A stretch of DNA of 64,000 bases from an uncultured bacterium. Its GTDB lineage: Bacteria; UBA8481. The stretch is from the NCBI GenBank assembly GCA_964548165.1, contig CAZJQD010000007.1:25665-89664 (forward strand), written 5' to 3'. This document shows, piece after piece, positions 14,045-63,401 of this stretch. Position 1 is the stretch's first letter. The number at the start of each line of letters is the position of its first letter. Position numbers and translations under genes: made by a program. The notes under the pieces are model-generated. The model searched no databases. It had not been told where the DNA came from and worked only from the letters and a program-made list of their open reading frames with translations.

Positions 14045-14644
14045 GTGACTGCCGCTGCCACGTCACCGGCCCCGATGACTTCCGCCAGCATGAAGGCCCC
14101 GGGTTGGTTGCTGGCGATCACGTGGGTCGCGGTCCCCGTCCTTGTCGCCTTTGACCAGTGGACCAAGAACTTCATCGTCACCTACTACTACCTCTGGGAG
14201 ATCGACCCCATCATCGGGAACATCGTGAGATTGACGCGCGTGCATAACCAGGGCGCGGCATTCGGCGTCCTGCAGGAGTGGCCGGGGCTCTTTCGCAACC
14301 TCACGGGCTTCGCCATCGTCGCGCTTACCGCGCACAAGGCCCTGACCCGGAACCGCACCGCTCTCTACCATGCCGCGCTTGGCCTCGTGCTCGCCGGCGC
14401 CGTCGGCAACTTCATCGACCGCATCCGCTACAATTACGTCGTCGACTTCATCCAGGTCGGATTCAACGGCTGGTACTGGCCCTCGTTCAACGTTGCGGAC
14501 TCGGCCATCTCCGTGGGCGTCGTCCTCCTGCTCTGGGGCTCCCTGGCGATGCCCGAACCCGAGGACACACCTATCACCGACGAACCCATCACGGATGGGG
14601 AACCCATCACGGATGGGAAATCCGACGCAGAAGCGAGGCCCTAG
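14045..14644 (+). CDS. lspA: lipoprotein signal peptidase II
   Basis: Motifs DQWTKN, NQGAAFG, GNFIDR and FNVADSAISVG, in the conserved ileS-lspA synteny. GTG start 3 nt after the ileS stop. The C-terminal 30 aa (TPITDEPITDGEPITDGKSDAEARP) is encoded by palindromic repeat units. Confidence 0.85.
   Translation: MTAAATSPAPMTSASMKAPGWLLAITWVAVPVLVAFDQWTKNFIVTYYYLWEIDPIIGNIVRLTRVHNQGAAFGVLQEWPGLFRNLTGFAIVALTAHKALTRNRTALYHAALGLVLAGAVGNFIDRIRYNYVVDFIQVGFNGWYWPSFNVADSAISVGVVLLLWGSLAMPEPEDTPITDEPITDGEPITDGKSDAEARP
14585..14617. repeat. tandem pair of 15-bp palindromes CCCATCACGGATGGG (period 18 bp)
   Basis: Perfect inverted-repeat arms CCCATC/GATGGG with a 3-nt spacer, two copies, inside the 3' tail of lspA and 30-60 nt upstream of the lgt start. 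The same pair recurs at 56956-56988. Confidence 0.7.
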
Positions 14645-14646
14645 CC

Positions 14647-15408
14647 ATGTTCCCCGTGCTCGTAGACATTCCCGGGTTTCCCATCCACACCTACGGCATC
14701 CTCCTGGCGCTCGGGTTCGCCGCCGCCCTGGTCACGCTCATCTCCGTCGGCCGCGTCGCGGGCTTCCGCAGCGAAGACCTGGGCGACCTCGCGCTGGTGG
14801 CGCTCGTCAGCGGACTGGTGGGTGGCCGCCTCCTCTACGTGATCGTCGAGTGGGACCAGTTCGCGGGAAATCTCTCGCAGATCGTCCTCAGGCGCGACGG
14901 CTTCGTCTTCTACGGGGGCCTGCTCGTGGCCGCGCCCGTCACCATGTTCTTCCTGCGCCGCCGCGGGCTCCCCCTCGCTCCCCTCGCCGATGTCGTCGCG
15001 CCCGCGCTCGCGCTTGGCCACTCCATCGGGCGACTCGGCTGTTTCGCGCAGGGTTGCTGTTACGGCCGCGCCTCCGCCTGGGGCCTCACCTTCCACGAGG
15101 ACTCCGCGGCATCGGTCGCCAACGGCGGACTCCCGGTCATCCCCGTCCAGCTCTATGAATCGCTCCTTCTCCTGGGCCTCTTCGGCCTGCTGCTTTCCCT
15201 GAGGGGTCGCTTCAAGTTTCCTGGCGCCCTGATGTGCGTGTACCTCGCCGTGTACGCCGTGATCCGCTTCAGCCTCGAGACGCTCCGCGCCGATGACCGC
15301 GGCTTCTACCTCGGACCGCTCTCGGTTTCGCAGTTAATCTCCATCGGGCTCCTCGCGCTCGCCGGCATCCTCGCCTGGAGGCTCCGCTCACGCCAACCCA
15401 TATCGTAG
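14647..15408 (+). CDS. lgt: prolipoprotein diacylglyceryl transferase
   Basis: Lgt signature GRLGCFAQGCCYG and multiple TM helices. ATG at 14647, 2 nt after the lspA stop. The track ORF 14278-15408 is an upstream out-of-context extension. Confidence 0.85.
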   Translation: MFPVLVDIPGFPIHTYGILLALGFAAALVTLISVGRVAGFRSEDLGDLALVALVSGLVGGRLLYVIVEWDQFAGNLSQIVLRRDGFVFYGGLLVAAPVTMFFLRRRGLPLAPLADVVAPALALGHSIGRLGCFAQGCCYGRASAWGLTFHEDSAASVANGGLPVIPVQLYESLLLLGLFGLLLSLRGRFKFPGALMCVYLAVYAVIRFSLETLRADDRGFYLGPLSVSQLISIGLLALAGILAWRLRSRQPIS

Positions 15409-16372: not shown

Positions 16373-16401
16373 CTCAGGAATTCGTCCCATTCTGCCGATA
16401 A
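16373..16401 (+). promoter_or_regulatory. sigma-28 (FliA)-type promoter upstream of flagellin
   Basis: Exact -10 consensus GCCGATAA at 16394-16401. Weak -35-like CTCAGG 15 nt upstream. SD AGGGA 5 nt before the ATG at 16440. Confidence 0.5.
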
Positions 16402-16439
16402 GAAGGGATACAAGGACGGTATCTTCTACAGGGACGTAG

Positions 16440-17267
16440 ATGAGAATCACTCACAACGAGCTATCAGCCTTTTCCCTCCGGCAGGTTAAATCCGCCGAGA
16501 AGGACGAACTCTCAACCAAGGAACAATTGTCCTCGGGCCGGCGCATCAATCACGCCGGCGACGACGCCGCGGGCCTGGCCATCTCCGACCGCCTCGCGGC
16601 GCGGCACCGCGGCATCCACCAGGCCTGGCGCAATGCCTACGACGCCCAGGCCCTGGTGCGCACCGCGGAAGGCGCCTACGAGGGCGTCAACGAGATGCTC
16701 CAGCGCGTCCGCGCGCTCGCCATCCAGGCCTCCAATGACACCCTCATCACCAGCGACCGGCAGAACATCCAGCTCGAGGTCACCGCGCTCCTCGAGGAGA
16801 TCGATCGGCAGTCGGACACGGTCGAGTACAACGGCAAGAAGCTCTTCGCGCCGACCACGGACCCGGAAGGCCAGGAATACACCTTCCAGGTCGGCTCGGA
16901 CAGGAATGAAACCCTGCGGGTCGATGTCGCGCCCCTGAACGCCACCTGGCTCGGCGTCGAGGACCTCGACGTGAGCTCCCGCGTCTCGGCCGATTCCGCC
17001 ATTGCGGCGGTGGATGGCGCTCTCAATCGCCTCAACGGCCAGCGCGCCGATGTCGGCTCGGTCCAGAACCGGCTCGACGAGGTCATGATGTTCACCGGCA
17101 TCGCCCGCGAGAACACGATCGCGGCGGAGACCAAGATCCGCGACGCCGACTTCGGCCCGACGATCACCGACTATACCAAGCAACAGATCCTGCGCAGTAC
17201 CCGCCTGAGCGCCCTGGCCCAGGCCAATCTCCAACCCGAGTCCGTCCTCCAGCTCCTCAACGCGTAA
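16440..17267 (+). CDS. fliC: flagellin (short, 275 aa, minimal variable domain)
   Basis: N-terminus MRITHN...LSSGRRINHAGDDAAGLAISDRL and C-terminus GSVQNRLDEV...IRDADFGPTITDYTKQQILRSTRLSALAQANLQPESVLQLL match conserved flagellin D0/D1 segments. There are no other flagellar genes in the window. Confidence 0.85.
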   Translation: MRITHNELSAFSLRQVKSAEKDELSTKEQLSSGRRINHAGDDAAGLAISDRLAARHRGIHQAWRNAYDAQALVRTAEGAYEGVNEMLQRVRALAIQASNDTLITSDRQNIQLEVTALLEEIDRQSDTVEYNGKKLFAPTTDPEGQEYTFQVGSDRNETLRVDVAPLNATWLGVEDLDVSSRVSADSAIAAVDGALNRLNGQRADVGSVQNRLDEVMMFTGIARENTIAAETKIRDADFGPTITDYTKQQILRSTRLSALAQANLQPESVLQLLNA

Positions 17268-17411
17268 CAAACTTGCATCGCGGGGACGGAGATTAAACTC
17301 GACCCCAATCTAGCGGCTCCTCCACTCGCGCCAGGCCTGAGCCGGGCTCGGTAGGGGCACACCCCATGGTATGGCCCTACCGTCTTGAACCAAAATCATA
17401 GGGTGAATGCC

Positions 17412-19088
17412 ATGAAACTAGCGGTCTACAAGACGCGGATCGCCTGCACGATCGGACCGGCTAGCCAAGCGCCTGAAGTGATGCTGTCCCTGCTCCATGC
17501 CGGGATGAATATTGCCCGTCTCCGTTACGCTCCCGACGATTTCGCTCACCACAAATCGGTGATCGAGAATCTTCGTCGCACCGCCCTGGAGGCTCAGAAG
17601 CCGCTGGCGATCATGGCAGATCTGCCGGGGCCGAAAAGTCGGGTCGGGGCTGAGTCGCGTGAAAACAAGAAGATGGATCACCCAGGAAATGATCAGGGAG
17701 GCGGTAAGCTTACCGAACACGACCATGACTGCCTGCAATCCGCACTGGAAAACGGCGTGGACGCCGTCTGCCTCTCCGTGGAGGAGCCGGCCAGTGTGGA
17801 CGCCGTACGAAAGGCAGCGACCGACCTGGGACGTCATCCGTTCCTCATGGCGAAGATCGACCGGGCGGCGGCACTGGACCACATCGATGAGATCCTCAGG
17901 GCTGCCGATGGCATCATGATTGCGCGAGCCGACCTCGCGGCGGAAATCCCCGTGGAGAGAATCACCATCATCCAGAAGCAGTTGACACTCAAGGCCATCC
18001 TGCTTGGCAAGCCGGTCATCACGACCACGCAGATGCTGGAATCCATGGTGAACCAGGATCGACCCACGCGGATCGAATGCGCTGACGTGGCCAACGCCAT
18101 CCTCGACGGCACGGATGGCGTAATGCTTTCCGACGAATCGGCACGGGGGAAATTCCCGGTCGAGGCGGTGAGCATGCTGGCGACGATCGCGGCAGCAACC
18201 GAGCCGCATCGGCTCGCGGGTCGCGTCCACGAAGTCTTCGCCGACTACGATCGCGACCACGATGTTCCCCTCGTGCATTTCATCTCGCACAACGTGCAAG
18301 AGACCGTGGAGCGCCTCGCACCGGCAGCTGTCATCGTCTCCACGAACACGGGGTACACGGCGCGGATGATCTCGCGCTTCAAACTGCCATTGTGGATCGT
18401 GGCTGTCAGCCCCGACGAAGCAACGTGCCAGGGGCTGCTATTTTCGTACGGCGTGCACGCGATGCACGAACCTGAGCGCCCCGAAAATTGGATCGAATTC
18501 GCAAGGCACTGGGCGCAAGGCCAGGGGCTGACAGAGGGGCTTGTGGTGTTGACTGAAGGGCCTTCGCCGGAAAACCCGAAGGCGCATCATCGCCTGGAAG
18601 TCATCGATCTGAGCCAAGCCGAGCCCAAGCCCGAAGCCAAGGTCGAGACACCGCCCGAGGTCAAGGCCGAGCCCAAGCCCGAAGCCAAGGTCGAGCCACC
18701 GCCCGAAGCCAAAGCCGAGCCCAAGCCCGAAGCCAAGGTCGAGACACCGCCCGAGGTCAAAGCCGAACTGAAGCCCGAGGCCAAGGTCGAGCCGCCGCCC
18801 GAGGTCAAAGCCGAGCCCAAGCCCGAAGCCAAGGTCGAGCCACCGCCCGAGGTCAAAGACGAGCCGAAGGCCGAAGCCAAGGTCGAGCCACCGCCCGAGG
18901 TCAAAGCCGAACCGAAGCCCGAGGCCAAGGTCGTAGCGCGTACGGAAGCGCAGGCAGACGACATGCAGAAGGCAGAAGTGGCGAACCGTTCGGACGAAAC
19001 TGCGGGGGATCAGGTCGCGCATCTGAAACGAACCGCCGTTATGGACGCGGCCCTTGAGGCTGTCAGCCAGGCGGCCACGGCGAGTTAG
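17412..19088 (+). CDS. pyruvate-kinase-like protein lacking the B (lid) domain, with a C-terminal proline/glutamate/lysine-rich repeat tail; probable pseudoenzyme
   Basis: Start at ATG 17412 (MKLAVYKTRIACTIGP) with SD AGGGTG. Conserved PK segments are present (KIDRAA..DGIMIARADLAAEIP, TQMLESM, PTRIECADVANAILDGTDGVMLSDESARGKFP). Catalytic residues are substituted: NFSHG becomes RYAPDD, DTKGPEIR becomes DLPGPKSR, ARGDLG becomes ARADLA, and SGE becomes SDE. About 6.5 copies of AEPKPEAKVE(P/T)PPEVK follow. Confidence 0.6.
   Translation: MKLAVYKTRIACTIGPASQAPEVMLSLLHAGMNIARLRYAPDDFAHHKSVIENLRRTALEAQKPLAIMADLPGPKSRVGAESRENKKMDHPGNDQGGGKLTEHDHDCLQSALENGVDAVCLSVEEPASVDAVRKAATDLGRHPFLMAKIDRAAALDHIDEILRAADGIMIARADLAAEIPVERITIIQKQLTLKAILLGKPVITTTQMLESMVNQDRPTRIECADVANAILDGTDGVMLSDESARGKFPVEAVSMLATIAAATEPHRLAGRVHEVFADYDRDHDVPLVHFISHNVQETVERLAPAAVIVSTNTGYTARMISRFKLPLWIVAVSPDEATCQGLLFSYGVHAMHEPERPENWIEFARHWAQGQGLTEGLVVLTEGPSPENPKAHHRLEVIDLSQAEPKPEAKVETPPEVKAEPKPEAKVEPPPEAKAEPKPEAKVETPPEVKAELKPEAKVEPPPEVKAEPKPEAKVEPPPEVKDEPKAEAKVEPPPEVKAEPKPEAKVVARTEAQADDMQKAEVANRSDETAGDQVAHLKRTAVMDAALEAVSQAATAS
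18618..18932 (+). repeat. 48-nt coding tandem repeat, about 6.5 copies
   Basis: Unit gccgagcccaagcccgaagccaaggtcgagacaccgcccgaggtcaag with a few substitutions per copy. It encodes AEPKPEAKVETPPEVK. Antisense ORFs 18438-19112 and 18587-18964 are shadows of this repeat. Confidence 0.9.
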
Positions 19089-26905: not shown

Positions 26906-29900
26906 TCAGGGGCGGCGGCCCATCATGCGACCGAGAACGGAGCCGAATCCAGAACGCGACTTCGGCCCGTGCTTGCGGATCTCGGCGAGGATCTTATAGG
27001 TCTCGGCGTGGAGCTCCCCCTGCGCGGCCGCGGTCTCGACGAGCGTGCGCGCGGCATCCAGGTCGCCGGATCGGAACATGATGAGCGCCAGGTTATGGAC
27101 AGCGCGCTGGTGCGTGGGGACCTCGGCGATGACCCGCTGGTAATACCGCACGGCCTCGGGGATATACCCCGTGTCCTCGAGCACCCGCGCCTTCTCGATC
27201 ATCTCGTCGATGGAGAGTTTATCATCAAGGGGCGGGAGTTCTTCCGCGATGAATTCGCCGCCGTCGTCAAAGGCAAGGCGAGGTTGCAGGAGCGGGGCGG
27301 CGGGCGATTCCGACGCCTGGGGCAAGGAGGGCTGCTTCGCCTGCGCGGCAGGCGCCGGCGCAGGTTCAGGCGCGGCAACGAATTCCGGCGGCAGAGGCGC
27401 CTGCCAGCCAGGAGCCGGGGCGATCGCGACGATCTCCGGGGGCGGCGGCTCGCCCACCGACTCGGTTGCGCGCGCCAATTCCGCCTCACGCGATGCCAGG
27501 TCGCGCCTCAGTGCCGCGCTGGCCGACTCGGCGGCGCGCCTGGCGGCCTCCGCCCGGTCACGCTCAGCCGCCAGGAGCTCACGCTCGGCCGCATCGTGGG
27601 CCCGCTCTTCCTCCAGGCTTCGCGCCCGCCCTCGCAGGGCGCTCAGCTCAGCCTGGGCCGCCTCCAGCTCCATGGCCAGTCGCTCCTGGTCCGCGGACGC
27701 CGCGACCGCGCTCGCGCGTTCCCGCTCCTCCAGCCGCGACCGTTCCATGAGCGCTTCCAGGTCGGCCAGTCGCCGCGCCGCCGCCTCGCGCTCGCGAGCC
27801 AGCGCCGCATTCTCCTCCCGAAGGCTTAGAGCCGCCCTCTCGGCCGCGCGCCACTTCTCGCGAATCTCGGCCAGTTCCGCCGAGCTCTTTGCCGGGGCCG
27901 CTCCCTCCGGGGCACCGGGCGCTGCGGCGCCCTGGCGCGAAACCAGGACCGAGGCCAGCTCATTCTGGATCCGGATGACCTCGGCGCGCAGTCGCGCGGT
28001 CTCGACGGCGTCCGCCGCCGTCTCGCCCGCACCCTCGCCCGGCGTAGCGACCGGCCGAGCCGCAAGGTCCTTGTGCAGGCGATCGATCTCGGCGCGCATC
28101 TCGGAGATGATCCGCGCCTCTCCATCATCACCGGCCACCTTGACCCGCTCGCGGAGCCACGTCCCCACCTCGCGCTTGAGAATGTCGAGCGCGCGGATCT
28201 CGAAATCCTTCTCGCGTCGCAGCAGGACGACCTCGCGGCGCATCCGCTCCAGGGCGTCGTCGAGAATCCGGCGTTCCTCGTCGGATGCGGCATCCTTGAG
28301 CCTCTCGGTGGGGGGAGAAACCGCCTGGACCCGGGCGCGAGCCGCCGCGAGCTCCTCCTCGACCGCCAGGAGATGGCGTCGATCCAACTCGCGCGCGGCA
28401 TCCGCGCTGGCGGCGGCGCGACGAGCCGCTTCCAACTCCTCGCGCATCCGCGCCAGTTCCTCTTGAGCGGCCTTGAGAGCCTCATGGTCCAGGTTCGGCG
28501 CCGAAGCGACCGGAAGGTCCGGGGGCGACGCCAGGGCGGCCAGCCGCTTCTCGGCGAGGTCGCGCTGCAGGGCGTCTCGCTCGGCGCGCATGGCATCCAG
28601 CTCGGCGCGCGCCTTCTCCATCCGGTCCCGCATCTCCGCAGCTCGCCGGTCCACGTCCTCGCGCGCCGCCTCGGCGGCTCGCCGTTCCTCTTCCACGGCA
28701 CGCCGCGCATGTTCCGACGCACGGGCGAGAGCATCCTGTTCCGCGGCAAGGGTTTCGACCACGGCACGGCGCTCCGCGATCTCGGACTCGATCTCCCCCA
28801 GCTCGCGCTCCACGGCCGACCGACGCTCCGCCTGCTCCTCCTCGAGCGCCTGCTCCCGGCCCGTCGAGGCCGCGGCGCGCAGAGGTTCAGTCGCCGCCCG
28901 GAGTTCCTCCAGCTCACGTTGAAGCGCCGCAACGCGATCCTCCATCAGGGCGCGCTGTGCGGCGAGGTCATCGTGCTGTTCCCTGAGGGCGGCCATGCTG
29001 CCCGCAAACTCCCGGCGCTCCTCCTCGAAGCGCGCCCGGTTCGCGGCCGCCGCCTCGATCTCGCCCGCCAACCGATCCCGCTCGGCGCGCTGAACGTCGA
29101 TGGAGGAAGCGAGCTCGGCGTGTGCGGCCGCCGCCTCCAGGGCGACGCGGCTCTCGGCATCCGCTCGCCTCGCCGCGATCTCCGCGTCGAGCGCGGCGAG
29201 GGCCTCGGCACGTCGCGACTCCAGCTCGCGCTGAAGGACCTGGAGGCTCTCTTCGCGCTGGGCGGCCATCTCGGCCTGCTGAACCTTGTCGCGTTGCTCC
29301 CACCGTTCCCCGAGCGCCGCGGACCGCTCGGCGTTCGCGGCATCGCGCGCCGCCTGCAACGCCTCAATCTCGCGCTCCAGGTCGCTTCTGCGCGACGCGG
29401 CCGCCTCCACCTCGCCGCGCATCGCCTCGAGGCGCGTCGCCAGGGTTCGCTCCTCCTCCAGGATCGCGGAACGATCCGCGGAGGCATGCTCGATCTCCTC
29501 GGCAAGTCGTCGACTCTCGGCCCGCGCGCTCTCCAGGCCCGCGGCCACGGCCGCGCGCTCGGCCTCGCACTCCTCCCGGAACGCGGCCCGCGCCGCCGTC
29601 TGCTCGATGCGAAGCGCCTCCAGGGCGGCCGCCCGCTCGTCCTCCAGCTGGCGCGCCAGGACGAGCGCCTCCTCCTCCTTCAGTCGCGCCAACTCCTCGG
29701 CCAATGCCCGTTCCGCGGTAGCACGGCGCTCGTCGAGCTCGCGCCAGAGTGCCGCGCGCTGCTCCTCGAACTCCGGCGGCATCGCCCCTTCGGCGTCGGA
29801 CGCGACGACAGGCACCGTCTCCGTCCCGTAGCCGCCTGGCGCCGGCGCCGAGAAGACCTGATCACGCTCGGCCTCTGCCTGTGCCCGCGCCGCGAGCGCT

Positions 29901-32458
29901 TCATCTCGCGCCGCGAATGCTTCATCCCGCGCCGCGAGCGCTTCATCCCGCGCCGCGAGCGCTTCATCCCGCGCCGCGATAGCCGCCGCGCGATCCGCGA
30001 GAACGGCATCGCGCTCGGACTGCGCCTGGTCCCTCGAAGCGCTGAGCGACTCCGTTTCGGCCGCCAGGGCCTCCTTCTGCGCGCCGTAGGCACGAAACTC
30101 CTCCAGGAGCTCGGAACGGCGCCGTCCCAGCTCCACGAGCGCCGCATCCAGCTCCTCGCGCTCCGCGCGCCGGGCGGCGAGCTGGGCCTCGACCTCCAGG
30201 ATGCCGCCGACGCGCGACGCCTCCGCGCCCAGGCCGTGGGCCGCGGATTCGGCCTGCATCGCGGACTCCTCCGCCACTGCGCGTTTCCGCTTCAGGTCCT
30301 CGATGGTCGAGGACAACTGCGCCTGGTCCTCGCGAAGCCCGCGGCAAATCTCCTTCAGCCGCGCTTCCTCCTGCCTCGTCGCCTCCACGTCTCGCGCCAG
30401 GTCGGCCGAGCCCGCGCGGGCCGCCTCGAGCCGGGACTGCCAGCCGGCGGCCTCCTCGCGGACCGCCGCCAGCTCGCCCTGCCGCTCGGCCAGCGCCGCG
30501 CCCATCGCGCTCAGCTCGCCGCGCCGCGCTTCCAGCTCGGCATCCAGCGCGCCGCGTTCCTCATCGGTGCGTCTCTGCGTTTCGTCCCGCAACTGCTGGA
30601 GACGCCCGCGGACCTCCGCCAGCTCCGACGCCACCGCTTCGCGATCCGCCGCCAGGCGCCCCGCCTCCGCGCGGATCGCCGCGAGATCGGCGCGAGCCAG
30701 TTCGAGGTCCGCGTCGAGAGCGGCTCGCGACTGTCGGGCCTCCTCCTCGAGGACGGACCGCTGGCGAGCCGCCGCCGAGGCCGCGTCGGCCGCCGACGCC
30801 AAGGCCTCGTCACGCGTGGTGAGCGCCGCCGCCAGTTCCGCCTGCACGTTCACCAGCTGGGCGCGCGCCGCGCCCGCCCGTTCCTCAGCTTCGCGACCCT
30901 CGAGTTCCGCGGCGGCGCGGGCTTCTTCCGCGCGCTGGCGCGCCTCCGCAAGAGCGGTCGCCTCCGCCCGCAGGCGCTCCAGGCCCGCGTCCAGCTCCCT
31001 GGCCTCCACCTCCGCGGCATGCCTCTGCGCGAGTCGCGCGTCCCGCGCGCGCTCCGAGGCCGAAAGCTCCTCGCGAACCGCGACGAGGCCCGCGTCCAGC
31101 TCCTCCCTCTGCCGGGACACCAGCGCCGCCTCGGTCCGCAGGCGATCGAGCTCGGCGCGGGCCTCCACGAGCTCCTGGTCGATGCGGACGCGCTCGTGGG
31201 ATCCCGCCTGGAGCTCCTCGTGCTGGTCGCGACGCGCCGACGCCGCCGCTTCCTCGACCTTGGCGAGGTCCGCGCCCAGGAGCGATCGCCGCGCCTCGAG
31301 CTCGGCTATGTGCTCGGTCAGCGAACGCGCCTTGTTGGCCTCGGCCGCCAGGGACTCAGCCGCCATCTTCTGGCGCTCGACCATCCGCCCCTCGACCTCG
31401 AAGCTCTTCATCTCGAGATCGGAGAGCTGTTGTTGAACCTCGGTCCGCCGATCCTCCAGCCGGGTCAGCTCGTCGCGCACCTCGTGGAGCGAGGCCTTCA
31501 GGGCCTCGAGCTCCCCGACCTGCTGCGTCAGGGCCTGGACCTTCTCGCCCAGCCTCTGCTCCTCCATCGCCAGCGCGGCAATGGCCACGCTATCGGTCGG
31601 CGCCGCGTCGCCGGCCGCGGTCCGCGCGTCGCGATCGGCGGAACCGGCGGCGTCTCCACCGAAATTCCCGGCATCCGTCGTCCCCTCAGCACCCGCCGCC
31701 GCCATGAGGGCCGCAAGACCTTCTAGTGCGGGTGCTGCGACTGCCTCCAGGACCCCGGGCGTACTGCCGGCCATCCCTCCCCCTTCCGGCGATTCTTCCG
31801 GCTTCTCCCATCCGCAGAGCGAACAGCGCCCGCTGTCCTTGAGCATGTTGGCCTTGCACTGCGGACAAGTCTCGAACGTCGGCTCGTGGAAGAGCACGGT
31901 CTCGCGGTCCGACAGGAGCATGCCGCAGATGTAGCAGCGATCGGCATCGTGCTTCACGACGGCGCGACAGTTCGGACAGCGCTTCGGCGGCTTGACCTCC
32001 TCCTTCTTCTCTTCCTTCGGCTCGGCCTCGGGCTCCCCACCCATCCAGCCTGGACGAATACGCGATTGCATGCTGGATGCCCCGCCCAGGGAGCGGCTCA
32101 ACCGCTCCCGCTGCATCGCCTCCGCGGCGCGGACCGCCTGGTCGCGCCCCACGTAGGTGCTGAACTCGCGCGACCCGCCCTGCACCTCGAGGAGGTCATC
32201 GAGCGCGCGCTCTTCGCCGGAAAAGACGAGGAAGACGCGCCCCTCCTTGCGCCCCAGCTTGCGCGCGGCCTTGATGAGCAGTTCCCCGGCGCCGGGAATG
32301 AACCGCCGCGCCTCGCGGAGATCGACCACCAGCACGGTCTCGCTGGCGATGAGCTCCTCGAGCCCGCGGGTGAAGATGTCCATGTCCTGGGGGTCCATGA
32401 ACCCGCGCATCTGCACGACGGGGACGGAACCGATACGGGCGGAGGAGATATCAAGCAT
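26906..32458 (-). CDS. giant (1850 aa) protein: N-terminal STAS-like domain, two zinc ribbons, about 1400-aa coiled coil, Pro-rich linker, C-terminal TPR
   Basis: N-terminal SpoIIAA/STAS-like fold (VVQMRGFMDPQDMDIFTRGLEELIASETVLVVDLREARRFIPGAGELL) without a phosphorylatable Ser. Zinc ribbons CPNCx9CYICG and CPQCx9CSLCG. A long Ala/Glu/Arg/Leu heptad-rich region (ARDEALA...). PPPPEIVAIAPAPGW linker. TPR-like C-terminus (YYQRVIAEVPTHQRAVHNLALIMFRSGDLDAARTLVE). Confidence 0.8.
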   Translation of the reverse strand: MLDISSARIGSVPVVQMRGFMDPQDMDIFTRGLEELIASETVLVVDLREARRFIPGAGELLIKAARKLGRKEGRVFLVFSGEERALDDLLEVQGGSREFSTYVGRDQAVRAAEAMQRERLSRSLGGASSMQSRIRPGWMGGEPEAEPKEEKKEEVKPPKRCPNCRAVVKHDADRCYICGMLLSDRETVLFHEPTFETCPQCKANMLKDSGRCSLCGWEKPEESPEGGGMAGSTPGVLEAVAAPALEGLAALMAAAGAEGTTDAGNFGGDAAGSADRDARTAAGDAAPTDSVAIAALAMEEQRLGEKVQALTQQVGELEALKASLHEVRDELTRLEDRRTEVQQQLSDLEMKSFEVEGRMVERQKMAAESLAAEANKARSLTEHIAELEARRSLLGADLAKVEEAAASARRDQHEELQAGSHERVRIDQELVEARAELDRLRTEAALVSRQREELDAGLVAVREELSASERARDARLAQRHAAEVEARELDAGLERLRAEATALAEARQRAEEARAAAELEGREAEERAGAARAQLVNVQAELAAALTTRDEALASAADAASAAARQRSVLEEEARQSRAALDADLELARADLAAIRAEAGRLAADREAVASELAEVRGRLQQLRDETQRRTDEERGALDAELEARRGELSAMGAALAERQGELAAVREEAAGWQSRLEAARAGSADLARDVEATRQEEARLKEICRGLREDQAQLSSTIEDLKRKRAVAEESAMQAESAAHGLGAEASRVGGILEVEAQLAARRAEREELDAALVELGRRRSELLEEFRAYGAQKEALAAETESLSASRDQAQSERDAVLADRAAAIAARDEALAARDEALAARDEAFAARDEALAARAQAEAERDQVFSAPAPGGYGTETVPVVASDAEGAMPPEFEEQRAALWRELDERRATAERALAEELARLKEEEALVLARQLEDERAAALEALRIEQTAARAAFREECEAERAAVAAGLESARAESRRLAEEIEHASADRSAILEEERTLATRLEAMRGEVEAAASRRSDLEREIEALQAARDAANAERSAALGERWEQRDKVQQAEMAAQREESLQVLQRELESRRAEALAALDAEIAARRADAESRVALEAAAAHAELASSIDVQRAERDRLAGEIEAAAANRARFEEERREFAGSMAALREQHDDLAAQRALMEDRVAALQRELEELRAATEPLRAAASTGREQALEEEQAERRSAVERELGEIESEIAERRAVVETLAAEQDALARASEHARRAVEEERRAAEAAREDVDRRAAEMRDRMEKARAELDAMRAERDALQRDLAEKRLAALASPPDLPVASAPNLDHEALKAAQEELARMREELEAARRAAASADAARELDRRHLLAVEEELAAARARVQAVSPPTERLKDAASDEERRILDDALERMRREVVLLRREKDFEIRALDILKREVGTWLRERVKVAGDDGEARIISEMRAEIDRLHKDLAARPVATPGEGAGETAADAVETARLRAEVIRIQNELASVLVSRQGAAAPGAPEGAAPAKSSAELAEIREKWRAAERAALSLREENAALAREREAAARRLADLEALMERSRLEERERASAVAASADQERLAMELEAAQAELSALRGRARSLEEERAHDAAERELLAAERDRAEAARRAAESASAALRRDLASREAELARATESVGEPPPPEIVAIAPAPGWQAPLPPEFVAAPEPAPAPAAQAKQPSLPQASESPAAPLLQPRLAFDDGGEFIAEELPPLDDKLSIDEMIEKARVLEDTGYIPEAVRYYQRVIAEVPTHQRAVHNLALIMFRSGDLDAARTLVETAAAQGELHAETYKILAEIRKHGPKSRSGFGSVLGRMMGRRP
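29888..29980 (-). repeat. 21-nt tandem repeat (about 4.4 copies) inside the coiled-coil gene
   Basis: Plus-strand unit cgccgcgagcgcttcatcccg. On the coding strand it encodes ARDEALAARDEALAARDEAFAARDEALA heptads. Confidence 0.8.
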
Positions 32459-38061: not shown

Positions 38062-39393
38062 TCAGACCTTCGAGAGCGCCTTGTCGAGGGTCTCGACGAT
38101 GAGGTCGGCATCCTCGACGGTGGAGCAGAGCGGGGGCTTGATGCGGATGGTGTTGCCGGCCATGCCGCCCTTGCCAAAGAGAACGCCCATGTCCTTTGCG
38201 AGATCGAGCACCTTCAGGACGAGATCGGGCGCGGGTTCCTTGGTCTTCGGATCGCGGACGATCTCCATGCCGAGCATGAGGCCCTTGCCGCGGATCTCGC
38301 CGATGCGCTCGTGCTTCTTCATGAGCGTCTGGACGCCTGCGACGATGCGCTCGCCGACGACGCGCGCGTTAGCCGCGTACTTGTACTTGGCGATCACGTC
38401 GAGGACGGCCTCGCCCTGGGTCATCGAGACCGGGTTTCCGCCGTAGGTGTTGAAGTGGACCTTCCCGTCCATGCAGGCGGCGATCTCGGGGGTGGTGATG
38501 ATGCCGCCCAGGGGGACGCCGTTGCCGATGCCCTTGGCCATCGTGATCATGTCGGGCTGAACGCCCCAGTGTTCGATCCCGAAGAACTTGTCGCCCGTCC
38601 GGCCGAAACCGGTCTGGACCTCGTCGGCTATGAAGAGCCCGCCGTATTTCTTCACGACGTCGTAGATCTTCTTGAAGTAGTTGGCCGGCGGGGTGATGAC
38701 GCCGCCGAAGCCCATGATTGGCTCGGCGATGAACGCCGCGAGCTTGCCGCAGGTCTGGTACTTGATGATCTCCTCGACCTGCTGGGCACACCAGTCGCCG
38801 AACTGCTCGTCGGTGAATTGCTCGGGCTTGCGGTAGGTGTAGCCGGCGGGCGCGTGGTGAACGCCGAAGACGTAGGGCAGGGAGTGGCGCCAGAGCGACT
38901 GGCCGGTGAGCGTCATGGCCATCAGCGTCCGGCCGTGGAACGAGTGCCGCAGCGCGATGAACTCCGAGGTCTTCGTGTGGTTCTTGGCGAGGATGGCGGC
39001 GAGCTCGGTCGACTCGGAACCCGAGTTCGTGAAGAAGCAGTTCTTGAGGTTCGGGTTGGCTCCAGCGGCGACCTCGGCCATCTTCTTGGCGTAGGTGACG
39101 ATGCGCGGGTGATAGTAGAGCGTGGTCATGTGCTGGAGCGTCTGGACCTGCTTGACGACGGGCGCGACGACGTCAGGGTGGCAGTGACCGACCGAGATCG
39201 TGACGACGGCCGAGAACGCGTCGAGGTACTTCCGACCCTTCTCGTCGAAGACGTACTGCATCTCGCCGCGAACGACGTTCACGGGATTGGAGTAGTAGGT
39301 CATCGTCGACGGGAGGAGATACTCCTTCCGCATCTTCGCGATCTGGTCGGGGCTGAGCTGAAAATCGGGGTCGTTGGCGTCCATGGAACACAT
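38062..39393 (-). CDS. class III aminotransferase (AGXT2 / beta-alanine-pyruvate type)
   Basis: Motifs ADEVQTGFGRTG and MITMAKGIGNGVPLG (PLP lysine), plus an N-terminal LLPS segment. Start taken at ATG 39393 (MCSMDANDP). The track ORF's upstream 80 aa is Arg/Pro-rich and unlikely to be real. Confidence 0.8.
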   Translation of the reverse strand: MCSMDANDPDFQLSPDQIAKMRKEYLLPSTMTYYSNPVNVVRGEMQYVFDEKGRKYLDAFSAVVTISVGHCHPDVVAPVVKQVQTLQHMTTLYYHPRIVTYAKKMAEVAAGANPNLKNCFFTNSGSESTELAAILAKNHTKTSEFIALRHSFHGRTLMAMTLTGQSLWRHSLPYVFGVHHAPAGYTYRKPEQFTDEQFGDWCAQQVEEIIKYQTCGKLAAFIAEPIMGFGGVITPPANYFKKIYDVVKKYGGLFIADEVQTGFGRTGDKFFGIEHWGVQPDMITMAKGIGNGVPLGGIITTPEIAACMDGKVHFNTYGGNPVSMTQGEAVLDVIAKYKYAANARVVGERIVAGVQTLMKKHERIGEIRGKGLMLGMEIVRDPKTKEPAPDLVLKVLDLAKDMGVLFGKGGMAGNTIRIKPPLCSTVEDADLIVETLDKALSKV

Positions 39394-39687
39394 CACCTGG
39401 TGAAAGAATGCGCGGCTCGGCGCAAGCGCCGGCCAGCGCGCGATCCTATCCCAATCCGGTGCTCCGCGTCCATCAAACCACGAGGCGCCGGGGGCGCCGG
39501 GCGCCATCCGGGCGAAAGCCGCGAGCGCGGGCACGGGCGGGACGCGGGCGCCGTCACGAGCGACTTTTCTTGTTCGCGGGCGAGGAGTCTGCAAGAGTGC
39601 GGCTCGCAATCCAGGGTCCGGGCGGCTCGCCACCCGGAGGAAGAATCCGCGTGGCCGGGCCGCCAGCTGACTCCTTGGAGGTGCACC

Positions 39688-56895: not shown

Positions 56896-56925
56896 TTGAC
56901 ATACCGGACCGATTCCGTCTAGTTT
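56896..56925 (+). promoter_or_regulatory. sigma-70-like promoter TTGACA-N18-TAGTTT upstream of the NCS1 transporter
   Basis: Perfect -35 TTGACA at 56896-56901 and -10 TAGTTT at 56920-56925. The palindrome pair lies between the predicted TSS and the RBS. Confidence 0.35.
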
Positions 56926-56955
56926 AGCCCGCTGGTCTACTTTCACAGCATCGGA

Positions 56956-56988
56956 CCCATCACGGATGGGGGACCCATCGTGGATGGG
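56956..56988. repeat. second tandem pair of CCCATC(A/G)(C/T)GGATGGG palindromes (period 18 bp)
   Basis: CCCATCACGGATGGG at 56956-56970 and CCCATCGTGGATGGG at 56974-56988, immediately 5' of the GGAGGAG SD of the NCS1 gene. Confidence 0.7.
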
Positions 56989-57001
56989 GGGAGGAGATTT
57001 C

Positions 57002-58576
<1,575 letters not shown>

Positions 58577-62701: not shown

Positions 62702-63340
62702 ATGTTCTTCGGCAAAAGTGAAATGAAGGTGCGCGATCGCATGCTCGAGCACGTGACGGCCGTGAAGTCCGCGCTCAGCCAGCTCCCCGTCGTCCTCGAC
62801 ACGTACTTCGACGCCCCCGAGAAGCTCGAAGACGCCACGTACGAAGTGCACCGGCTCGAGCACAAGGCCGACGACCTGCGCCGCGCCATCCAGCACGAGC
62901 TCGCGGGTGGCGCGTTCCTCCCCTTCTACCGCGAGGACTACATCGCGCTCGCGGACATGATCGACAAGGTCGCCAACCGCGCCGTCTCCCTCGCCAAGGC
63001 GATCTCGCTGGAGCGGCCGCAGTTCCCGGTCGATATCCGCCCGGGGCTCCGCGAGATCGCCGTCTGCACGGCCGAGAGCTTCGCCCACTTCGAGACCATC
63101 ATCCCCGCGCTCTTTGGGAACCAGGAGGACACGATGCAATTGACCGAGCTCGTGTCCGAAGGCGAGCAGAAGGCGGATTCGCTCGAGTGGAAGCTCCAGA
63201 AGGCCATCTTCGGCAATCCGGCCATCGACCGCGCCGAGCAGATCGTCCTGGCCGGCATCGTCCAGCGGCTATCGAGCATCCTCGACTCGATCGAGAACGC
63301 CGCCGACAAGGTGAGGCTCATCGTCGTCAAGAAGGCCTAG
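62702..63340 (+). CDS. DUF47-family (PhoU-like) protein, second paralogue
   Basis: Shares the GGAFLPFYREDYIALADMIDKVANRAV core and C-terminal SILDSIENAADKVRLIVVKKA with the first DUF47 gene. SD GGAGG before the ATG. Confidence 0.75.
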   Translation: MFFGKSEMKVRDRMLEHVTAVKSALSQLPVVLDTYFDAPEKLEDATYEVHRLEHKADDLRRAIQHELAGGAFLPFYREDYIALADMIDKVANRAVSLAKAISLERPQFPVDIRPGLREIAVCTAESFAHFETIIPALFGNQEDTMQLTELVSEGEQKADSLEWKLQKAIFGNPAIDRAEQIVLAGIVQRLSSILDSIENAADKVRLIVVKKA

Positions 63341-63401
63341 CGCCGGCGGGCCGCCGACAAGGTGAGGCTCATCGTCGTCAAGAAGGCCTAGCGCCGGCGG
63401 G
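63300..63401 (+). repeat. perfect 51-bp tandem duplication spanning the stop codon of the second DUF47 gene
   Basis: cgccgacaaggtgaggctcatcgtcgtcaagaaggcctagcgccggcgggc occurs twice back to back (63300-63350 and 63351-63401). Confidence 0.9.

Follow-up and report, generated by a model that had tools for sequence, protein, structure and literature searches.

REP families normally comprise tens to hundreds of copies, and REP and REPIN sequences are mobilised by RAYT transposases. MITEs are built of terminal inverted repeats around an internal segment, are accompanied by a target-site duplication and are usually at least 50 bp long. Small hairpins are also found in translational control, where a GGA-containing hairpin loop together with a site at the Shine-Dalgarno sequence is the typical two-site layout of flagellin mRNAs controlled by CsrA/FliW. 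In the hairpin of the hcnA ribosome-binding site, as bound by RsmE, C-G and U-A pairs close an ACGGAU loop (PMC4005645), and for CsrA the SELEX consensus is RUACARGGAUGU, with the CsrA dimer bridging sites that are 10-63 nt apart (PMC7652899). When the GGA is buried, RsmE binds only at millimolar strength, about a thousand-fold worse, and the ligands selected by SELEX have stems of at most four pairs (PMC7652899, PMC4005645).

The window, by which we mean the whole 64-kb stretch of DNA analysed here, contains a short palindromic element at two unrelated loci, one in the 3' coding tail of lspA (locus 1) and the other in the leader of an NCS1-family transporter gene (locus 2) (Table 1). Like REP, BIME and REPIN sequences, it is an imperfect palindrome of ~35 nt, within the ~20-40 nt of that class, and is predicted to fold into a stable hairpin both in mRNA and in single-stranded DNA; the element is also lineage-specific and dispersed, and it lies in transcribed DNA between genes or just before them. 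It differs from these families in being a direct tandem of two self-palindromic 15-mers instead of an inverted REP doublet, and in being known from only two loci, with one copy inside an ORF (copy 2 is extragenic, as is expected of a REP, and copy 1 is not). In addition, no conserved GTAG-like head was seen, and a Pfam search of about 30 ORFs of the window found no gene for RAYT or another transposase. Unlike a MITE, the element is only 33-36 bp long and has no internal segment, and a direct repeat, CCGACG, flanks locus 1 only, with no equivalent at locus 2. The Rickettsia palindromic elements (RPEs) resemble the element described here in that a palindromic repeat sits in frame in a gene, where it adds residues to a tolerant region, and the same element is also found in non-coding DNA. 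However, RPEs measure about 100-150 bp, come from an unrelated lineage and share no sequence similarity with the element, of which only one copy is coding.

Exact matches to CCCATC-N3-GATGGG start at positions 14585, 14603, 56956 and 56974 of the window, all on the + strand, and against these four matches 100 dinucleotide shuffles gave an expectation of 0.00 for the pattern CCCATCNNNGATGGG. The palindromes form two tandem pairs with an 18-bp period, at 14585-14617 and 56956-56988, and both the sequence and the coordinates agree with the initial annotation. TRF described both loci as 18-bp × 2 arrays (14582-14617 at 100% and 56953-56990 at 90%), with the units GAACCCATCACGGATGGG and GGACCCATCACGGATGGG. 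The 18-bp unit consists of G-R-A followed by CCCATC-N3-GATGGG, and two units in tandem make a sequence of 33-36 nt that can be read both as a direct repeat and as an imperfect palindrome. All four palindromes have perfect 6-3-6 symmetry, with variation confined to the central 3 bp (ACG versus GTG). Between copy 1 and copy 2, 33 of 37 bases are identical, including the non-palindromic CG-R-A flank and the G-R-A spacer, which points to common descent and not to convergent binding sites. The number of units is two in each copy, and the phase and the orientation relative to the gene are also the same, an agreement that would be explained, too, by selection for a two-site function.

No further copies had been noticed by eye in the window, and relaxed searches gave the same answer: neither the cores CATC-N3-GATG and CCAT-N5-ATGG, nor a 17-mer with up to three mismatches, nor a survey of all 6-3-6 palindromes detected a degenerate or additional copy there. 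In a general repeat search, the element was the only dispersed high-identity short repeat shared between non-homologous contexts in the window.

Table 1. Positions of the palindromic element and of the surrounding features in the window.
Feature	Position	Strand	Remarks
Copy 1	14582..14617	+	GAA-CCCATC-ACG-GATGGG twice, perfect 18-bp units; in frame in the lspA 3' tail; encodes EPITDG-EPITDG
Copy 2	56953..56988	+	GGA-CCCATC-ACG-GATGGG, then GGA-CCCATC-GTG-GATGGG; in the NCS1 5' untranslated leader
Degenerate partial unit	14570..14584	+	CCTATC-ACC-GAC-GAA (PITDE), directly 5' of copy 1; 11 of 18 unit positions match
lspA (signal peptidase II)	14045..14644	+	Homologues carry PF01252; copy 1 makes up 11-12 codons of the variable C-terminal tail
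lgt (prolipoprotein diacylglyceryl transferase)	14647..15408	+	Clean 253-aa ORF; start 2 nt after the lspA stop
NCS1-family nucleobase:cation symporter gene	57002..58576	+	PF02133 and names of JGI homologues; 87% identity to P0121 and P0122
Putative NCS1 promoter	56896..56925	+	TTGACA-18 nt-TAGTTT; read from the sequence
NCS1 Shine-Dalgarno GGAGGAG	56990..56996	+	5 nt before GTG 57002

A single unit is predicted to form a hairpin of 6 bp with a 3-nt loop (-6.8 kcal/mol), which is the structure that had been proposed for each palindrome. This structure is one of two possible folds, but it is less stable than the other, in which the whole tandem pair makes one extended hairpin of 14 pairs within the 33-nt core (-21.5 kcal/mol for copy 1 and -20.4 kcal/mol for copy 2, as RNA). 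In the extended hairpin the outer arms pair with each other and the inner arms pair with each other, the former loops add two pairs flanked by single A bulges, and the spacer, GAA or GGA, becomes the apical loop. The fold of -21.5 kcal/mol accounts for 89% of the predicted ensemble, and the z-scores of the RNA folds were -4.9 for copy 1 and -2.3 for copy 2. Folded as DNA, the two copies gave -12.2 and -11.5 kcal/mol, and the z-scores over RNA and DNA folds together ranged from -2.3 to -5.0. Because one extended hairpin is preferred, a 33-nt imperfect palindrome, similar in size to a REP, describes the element better than two independent hairpins do.

Two small tandem hairpins in front of a transporter gene, with ACG-purine in three of the four units, also recall the guanidine-II riboswitch (mini-ykkC). 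This candidate was rejected because there was no match in Rfam at E ≤ 10 and the ACG triloop is closed by a C-G pair and is not an ACGR tetraloop; moreover, the fourth loop is GUG, one of the loci is coding, and the adjacent gene is not one typically related to guanidine. Other riboswitches were rejected as well, as Rfam gave no match for the window at the gathering score and nothing but noise for both loci at E ≤ 10.

At locus 1, translation of the ORF confirmed the statement of the initial annotation that the element lies in the 3' coding end of lspA and gives the protein a PITDG-PITDG extension: the tail encodes ...TPITDEPITDGEPITDGKSDAEARP*, which includes EPITDG-EPITDG from copy 1. The end of copy 1 is 29 nt from the ATG of lgt at 14647 and 17 nt from a putative GAGG Shine-Dalgarno sequence, and nothing resembling a promoter or terminator was detected in its surroundings. 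The lgt orthologue of the closest relative (L001) carries PF01790, and its stop-start arrangement with lspA is identical to that in the window. Copy 1 is written in minority codons, since GAT makes up 27% of Asp codons, GGG 22% of Gly codons and GAA 16.5% of Glu codons in 15 genes of the window, and a unit encoding the peptide PIxDG would carry the palindromic codon set with a probability of 0.027. Such codons in lspA, together with the presence of the same DNA at locus 2, where it does not code for protein and is not in frame with the NCS1 ORF, indicate that what is conserved is the nucleotide sequence and not the peptide; in lspA, the ORF reads through an element that exists at the level of DNA. 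The sequence of the element tolerates this read-through, since all but one of its six reading frames are open and PIxDG is also encoded on the reverse strand.

The degenerate partial unit directly upstream of copy 1 appears to be at least partly ancestral sequence, because the relative shares its ACCGACGAA part. The edges of locus 1 can be aligned with the relative on both sides, with ACCGACGAA on the left and GAT GGG versus GAC GGG on the right. Because both edges look ancestral, the repeat at locus 1 may instead have originated in situ.

At locus 2, the start of the NCS1 gene was placed at GTG 57002, and orthologues start at the equivalent (M/V)xRIPIDEL. Copy 2 ends at 56988, only 1 nt before the Shine-Dalgarno sequence GGAGGAG. 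The earlier description of hairpins abutting the ribosome-binding site is therefore accurate for locus 2, but it does not fit locus 1 with its distance of 17 nt from the putative GAGG. The sigma-70-like promoter in front of the NCS1 gene had been called good, which overstated the match: the -35 is perfect but only 3 of 6 positions agree in the -10, and on account of this weak -10 a consensus scan did not call the promoter. An analogous arrangement, TTGACA-18 nt-TTTGAT, is found upstream of the NCS1 gene of a relative (L018). The NCS1 leader is not unusually structured when taken in its wider context (z -0.5).

In the window, the ORF next to the NCS1 gene on its upstream side is lipoprotein-like, and its match to GYF_2 is weak, below the Pfam cutoff. 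In L018 (8397-9731), genes for a class-III aminotransferase and a RidA-family protein divergently adjoin the NCS1 gene, and the homologue of this aminotransferase in the window (38062-39633, - strand) lies about 17 kb away from the NCS1 gene. The remote position of the aminotransferase gene and the different upstream neighbour show that the DNA directly upstream of locus 2 has been rearranged.

Relatives of the source organism are poorly represented among known sequences: the best homologues of the window's LspA are 78, 72 and 65% identical, after which identity drops to about 43%, and the best NCS1 homologues reach 87%. Comparison of lspA 3' ends among relatives, as proposed in the initial annotation, detected no PITDG repeat in the three LspA homologues of 65-78% identity, whose tails vary in length and sequence, and no palindrome in the DNA of the lspA-lgt junction of L001. 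In L018 and L019, too, the DNA in front of the NCS1 orthologue lacks the element, and L018 keeps the downstream synteny with the NCS1 region of the window as well as a similar layout of -35 and spacer. No analogous tandem palindromes were found in 38 kb of relatives' DNA. The absence of the element at the orthologous positions of the nearest available relatives indicates a lineage-specific gain at both loci.

The search was extended to one genome from each of 185,579 species, scanned for the tandem form only, with any loop and a gap of 1-30. The scan returned 16 loci, all of which are unrelated repeats, and no genome with this element. If the source genome is among the scanned species genomes with only the window masked, it contains no further exact tandem copy. 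Some of the 16 loci belong to a G-rich family of a single gammaproteobacterial MAG, and the others are isolated tandem repeats from elsewhere. In this MAG, MEX2-MAG1, an abundant family flanked by G/C runs is built around CCCATC-N3-GATGGG with the loops GGA, AAA, TTT and CCC; it was seen on at least nine contigs (L002-L004, L007, L008, L010, L011, L014 and L017), and its flanks and spacing are unrelated to those of the window element. A locus in a Desulfobacteraceae MAG (L005, JBNKKA010000075.1, 6040-6072) has two CCCATC-N3-GATGGG palindromes with the same 18-bp period as in the window, but its loops, TCC and TCT, and its spacer, CGG, are different. The L005 pair is intergenic and lies immediately 3' of a TAA stop codon, before another hairpin.

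The scan of JGI metagenomes gave one contig only, L020 (Ga0066650_10015946; 58% GC). At 785-838 of this contig, three 18-bp units stand in frame (EPIADG-EPVVDG-EPIADG) in a linker of a CheA-like hybrid kinase; in order they read GAACCCATCGCGGATGGG, GAACCCGTCGTGGACGGG and GAACCCATCGCGGATGGG, and they are nearly identical to the window unit. In the middle unit, CCCGTC...GACGGG, the palindrome is kept through a paired change from A:T to G:C. This repeat may be a distant relative of the window element or an independent, hairpin-driven duplication of coding sequence. IMG/VR gave no match, and blastn against plasmids and phages gave only chance-level matches (E ≥ 1). Proteins of the window, looked up as exact sequences, are absent from the public assemblies on record. 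A protein search with three-unit queries in the five open frames returned nothing at E ≤ 10, a threshold at which proteins with two units would not be detected. A search of the literature for the 15-mers as strings found unrelated primer sequences only.

The best-supported interpretation, to which we assign a probability of about 0.4, is that the element is a lineage-specific REP-like palindromic repeat whose DNA was copied into two transcribed sites that tolerate insertions. These sites would be the disordered C-terminal tail of LspA, where the copy is in frame, and the 5' leader of the NCS1 gene. The copying could have been carried out by a RAYT-type single-strand transposase encoded elsewhere and acting in trans, by ectopic recombination or by template switching, and the two-unit form probably arose by slipped-strand duplication stimulated by the hairpin. 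TRF detected many other short exact tandem duplications in the window, suggesting that slippage is active in this genome. Effects on expression would then be a by-product: a hairpin of ~-20 kcal/mol located 1 nt before the NCS1 Shine-Dalgarno sequence could change mRNA stability or the access of the 30S subunit, whereas the lspA copy would be melted by translating ribosomes and merely lengthen a variable tail, so that effects on lspA-lgt and on the transporter are probably incidental. The initial annotation had left the choice between an operator and a REP/MITE-like repeat, and the evidence leans loosely to the latter because the element is absent in relatives, the flank and spacer are shared and the codons are minority codons. 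What speaks against a REP-like repeat is that only two loci are known in 64 kb, that the scan of species genomes returned no genome with the element and the search of about 30 ORFs no transposase, and that one copy lies inside a gene, where REPs are not typically found; the possible in-situ origin at locus 1 and the agreement of the two copies in unit number, phase and orientation also count against it. That both loci lie near start codons says little, as the sites where insertions are tolerated are mostly gene ends and intergenic DNA, and together with the shared sense orientation this proximity is too weak to be taken as evidence of regulation. As a copied hairpin repeat, the element would illustrate in compact form how a palindrome spreads into both coding and leader DNA, which would be of modest interest for how genomes evolve in an under-sampled lineage.

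The perfect 6-3-6 symmetry of all units, in which only the central 3 bp vary, is what would be expected of a DNA operator where each 15-bp palindrome binds a dimeric protein and each locus holds two dimers. The same two-site architecture at both loci and the position of copy 2, about 30 nt downstream of a plausible -10, would agree with this, and the low copy number would suit a specific regulator; the protein might act as a roadblock repressor in the NCS1 leader, or it might be a low-copy chromosome-organising protein with matS/parS-type sites that ignore gene boundaries. We consider an operator unlikely, as the centre-to-centre spacing of 18 bp would place the two dimers out of helical phase and the identity between the copies reaches non-symmetric bases of flank and spacer, which a binding consensus does not require. 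Locus 1 has no promoter-like site and lies inside lspA, in an operon with a 2-nt stop-start spacing, no regulator gene adjoins either locus, and lgt and a nucleobase transporter have no apparent functional link. An operator would also be promoter-proximal and conserved at orthologous promoters, a combination that the element does not display, and the sites are not kept at the orthologous loci in L001, L018 and L019. Another view would dispense with a shared origin: the PITDG repeat in the LspA tail would come from coding slippage, and locus 2 would be alike by chance. LspA tails are indeed variable and acidic, most of the differences between the upstream PITDE and the units are synonymous, and in-frame 18-bp tandem repeats encoding xPIxDG with the same codons occur in the unrelated genomes L012 and L020. 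Coincidence is nevertheless extremely improbable, considering that the shuffles predict zero chance matches, that locus 2 is non-coding and out of frame, that the codons are minority codons and that the two loci are identical at 33 of 37 positions including the spacer.

A further alternative is at the level of RNA, namely a CsrA/Rsm-type operator with one GGA per unit, in which one CsrA dimer bridges two sites 18 nt apart. This distance falls within the bridging range of 10-63 nt, and the GGA core conforms to the A(N)GGA / CAnGGAnG consensus: UCACGGAUG, which contains the ACGGAU loop of the hcnA site, is present in three of the four units, and GGAUG in all four. Both copies are in the sense orientation on the mRNA, and copy 2 abuts the AGGAG of the Shine-Dalgarno sequence, which as a third site would complete a translational repression module for NCS1. 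The leader of a flagellin gene in the window (16395-16440), with an AAGGACG hairpin loop and an AGGGA Shine-Dalgarno sequence, also fits an organism that uses this type of control. However, the GGA of the element is not displayed in the loop of a short hairpin, where at most four pairs are typical; it is paired in GC-rich stems of 6 or 14 pairs, with two of its three bases in the 6-bp hairpin and all three in the favoured long hairpin, and a buried GGA binds RsmE poorly; ligands from SELEX have short stems. At locus 1 the sites are in a translated ORF, with the GGAs 36 and 54 nt before the start of lgt and away from its Shine-Dalgarno sequence. Natural CsrA sites are degenerate and do not take the form of cassettes that agree at 33 of 37 bases, the relatives lack the element, and neither tblastn nor a motif regex found csrA in the window. 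Control by CsrA thus seems quite unlikely. Very unlikely, too, is the combination of both ideas as a portable translational-control cassette, in which two CsrA/Rsm hairpins at bridging distance, each with UCACGGAUG, were copied as a unit before new genes. If this were the case, new genes would have been recruited into the CsrA regulon in a poorly sampled, flagellated lineage. More generally, if the hairpins recruit a regulator, be it CsrA or a DNA-binding dimer, the element would be a mobile regulatory module and more important than a REP-like repeat copied into tolerant sites.

Other repeats were observed in the window, and the genome is rich in short tandem duplications of coding sequence. 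A perfect 51-bp tandem duplication (63299-63400, + strand; 2.1 copies, 100%) covers the end of the second PhoU_div (DUF47) gene (62702-63340), from its last codons through the stop codon to 10 nt beyond, and it looks very recent. The ORF at 17385-19088 has a long C-terminal extension made of a 48-bp coding repeat (18616-18933, + strand; 6.6 copies, ...KAEPKPEAKVEPPPEV...), and an in-frame array of 21 bp × 4.6 is located at 29884-29979, inside a giant ORF (26909-32458, - strand).

In the flagellin leader (16395-16442, + strand; ORF 16440-17267), the predicted hairpin is GGGAUAC-AAGGACG-GUAUCUU, which places the GGA in a 7-nt loop, and the Shine-Dalgarno sequence reads ACAGGGAC. Such a leader with a CsrA-type layout suggests that the organism may encode CsrA.
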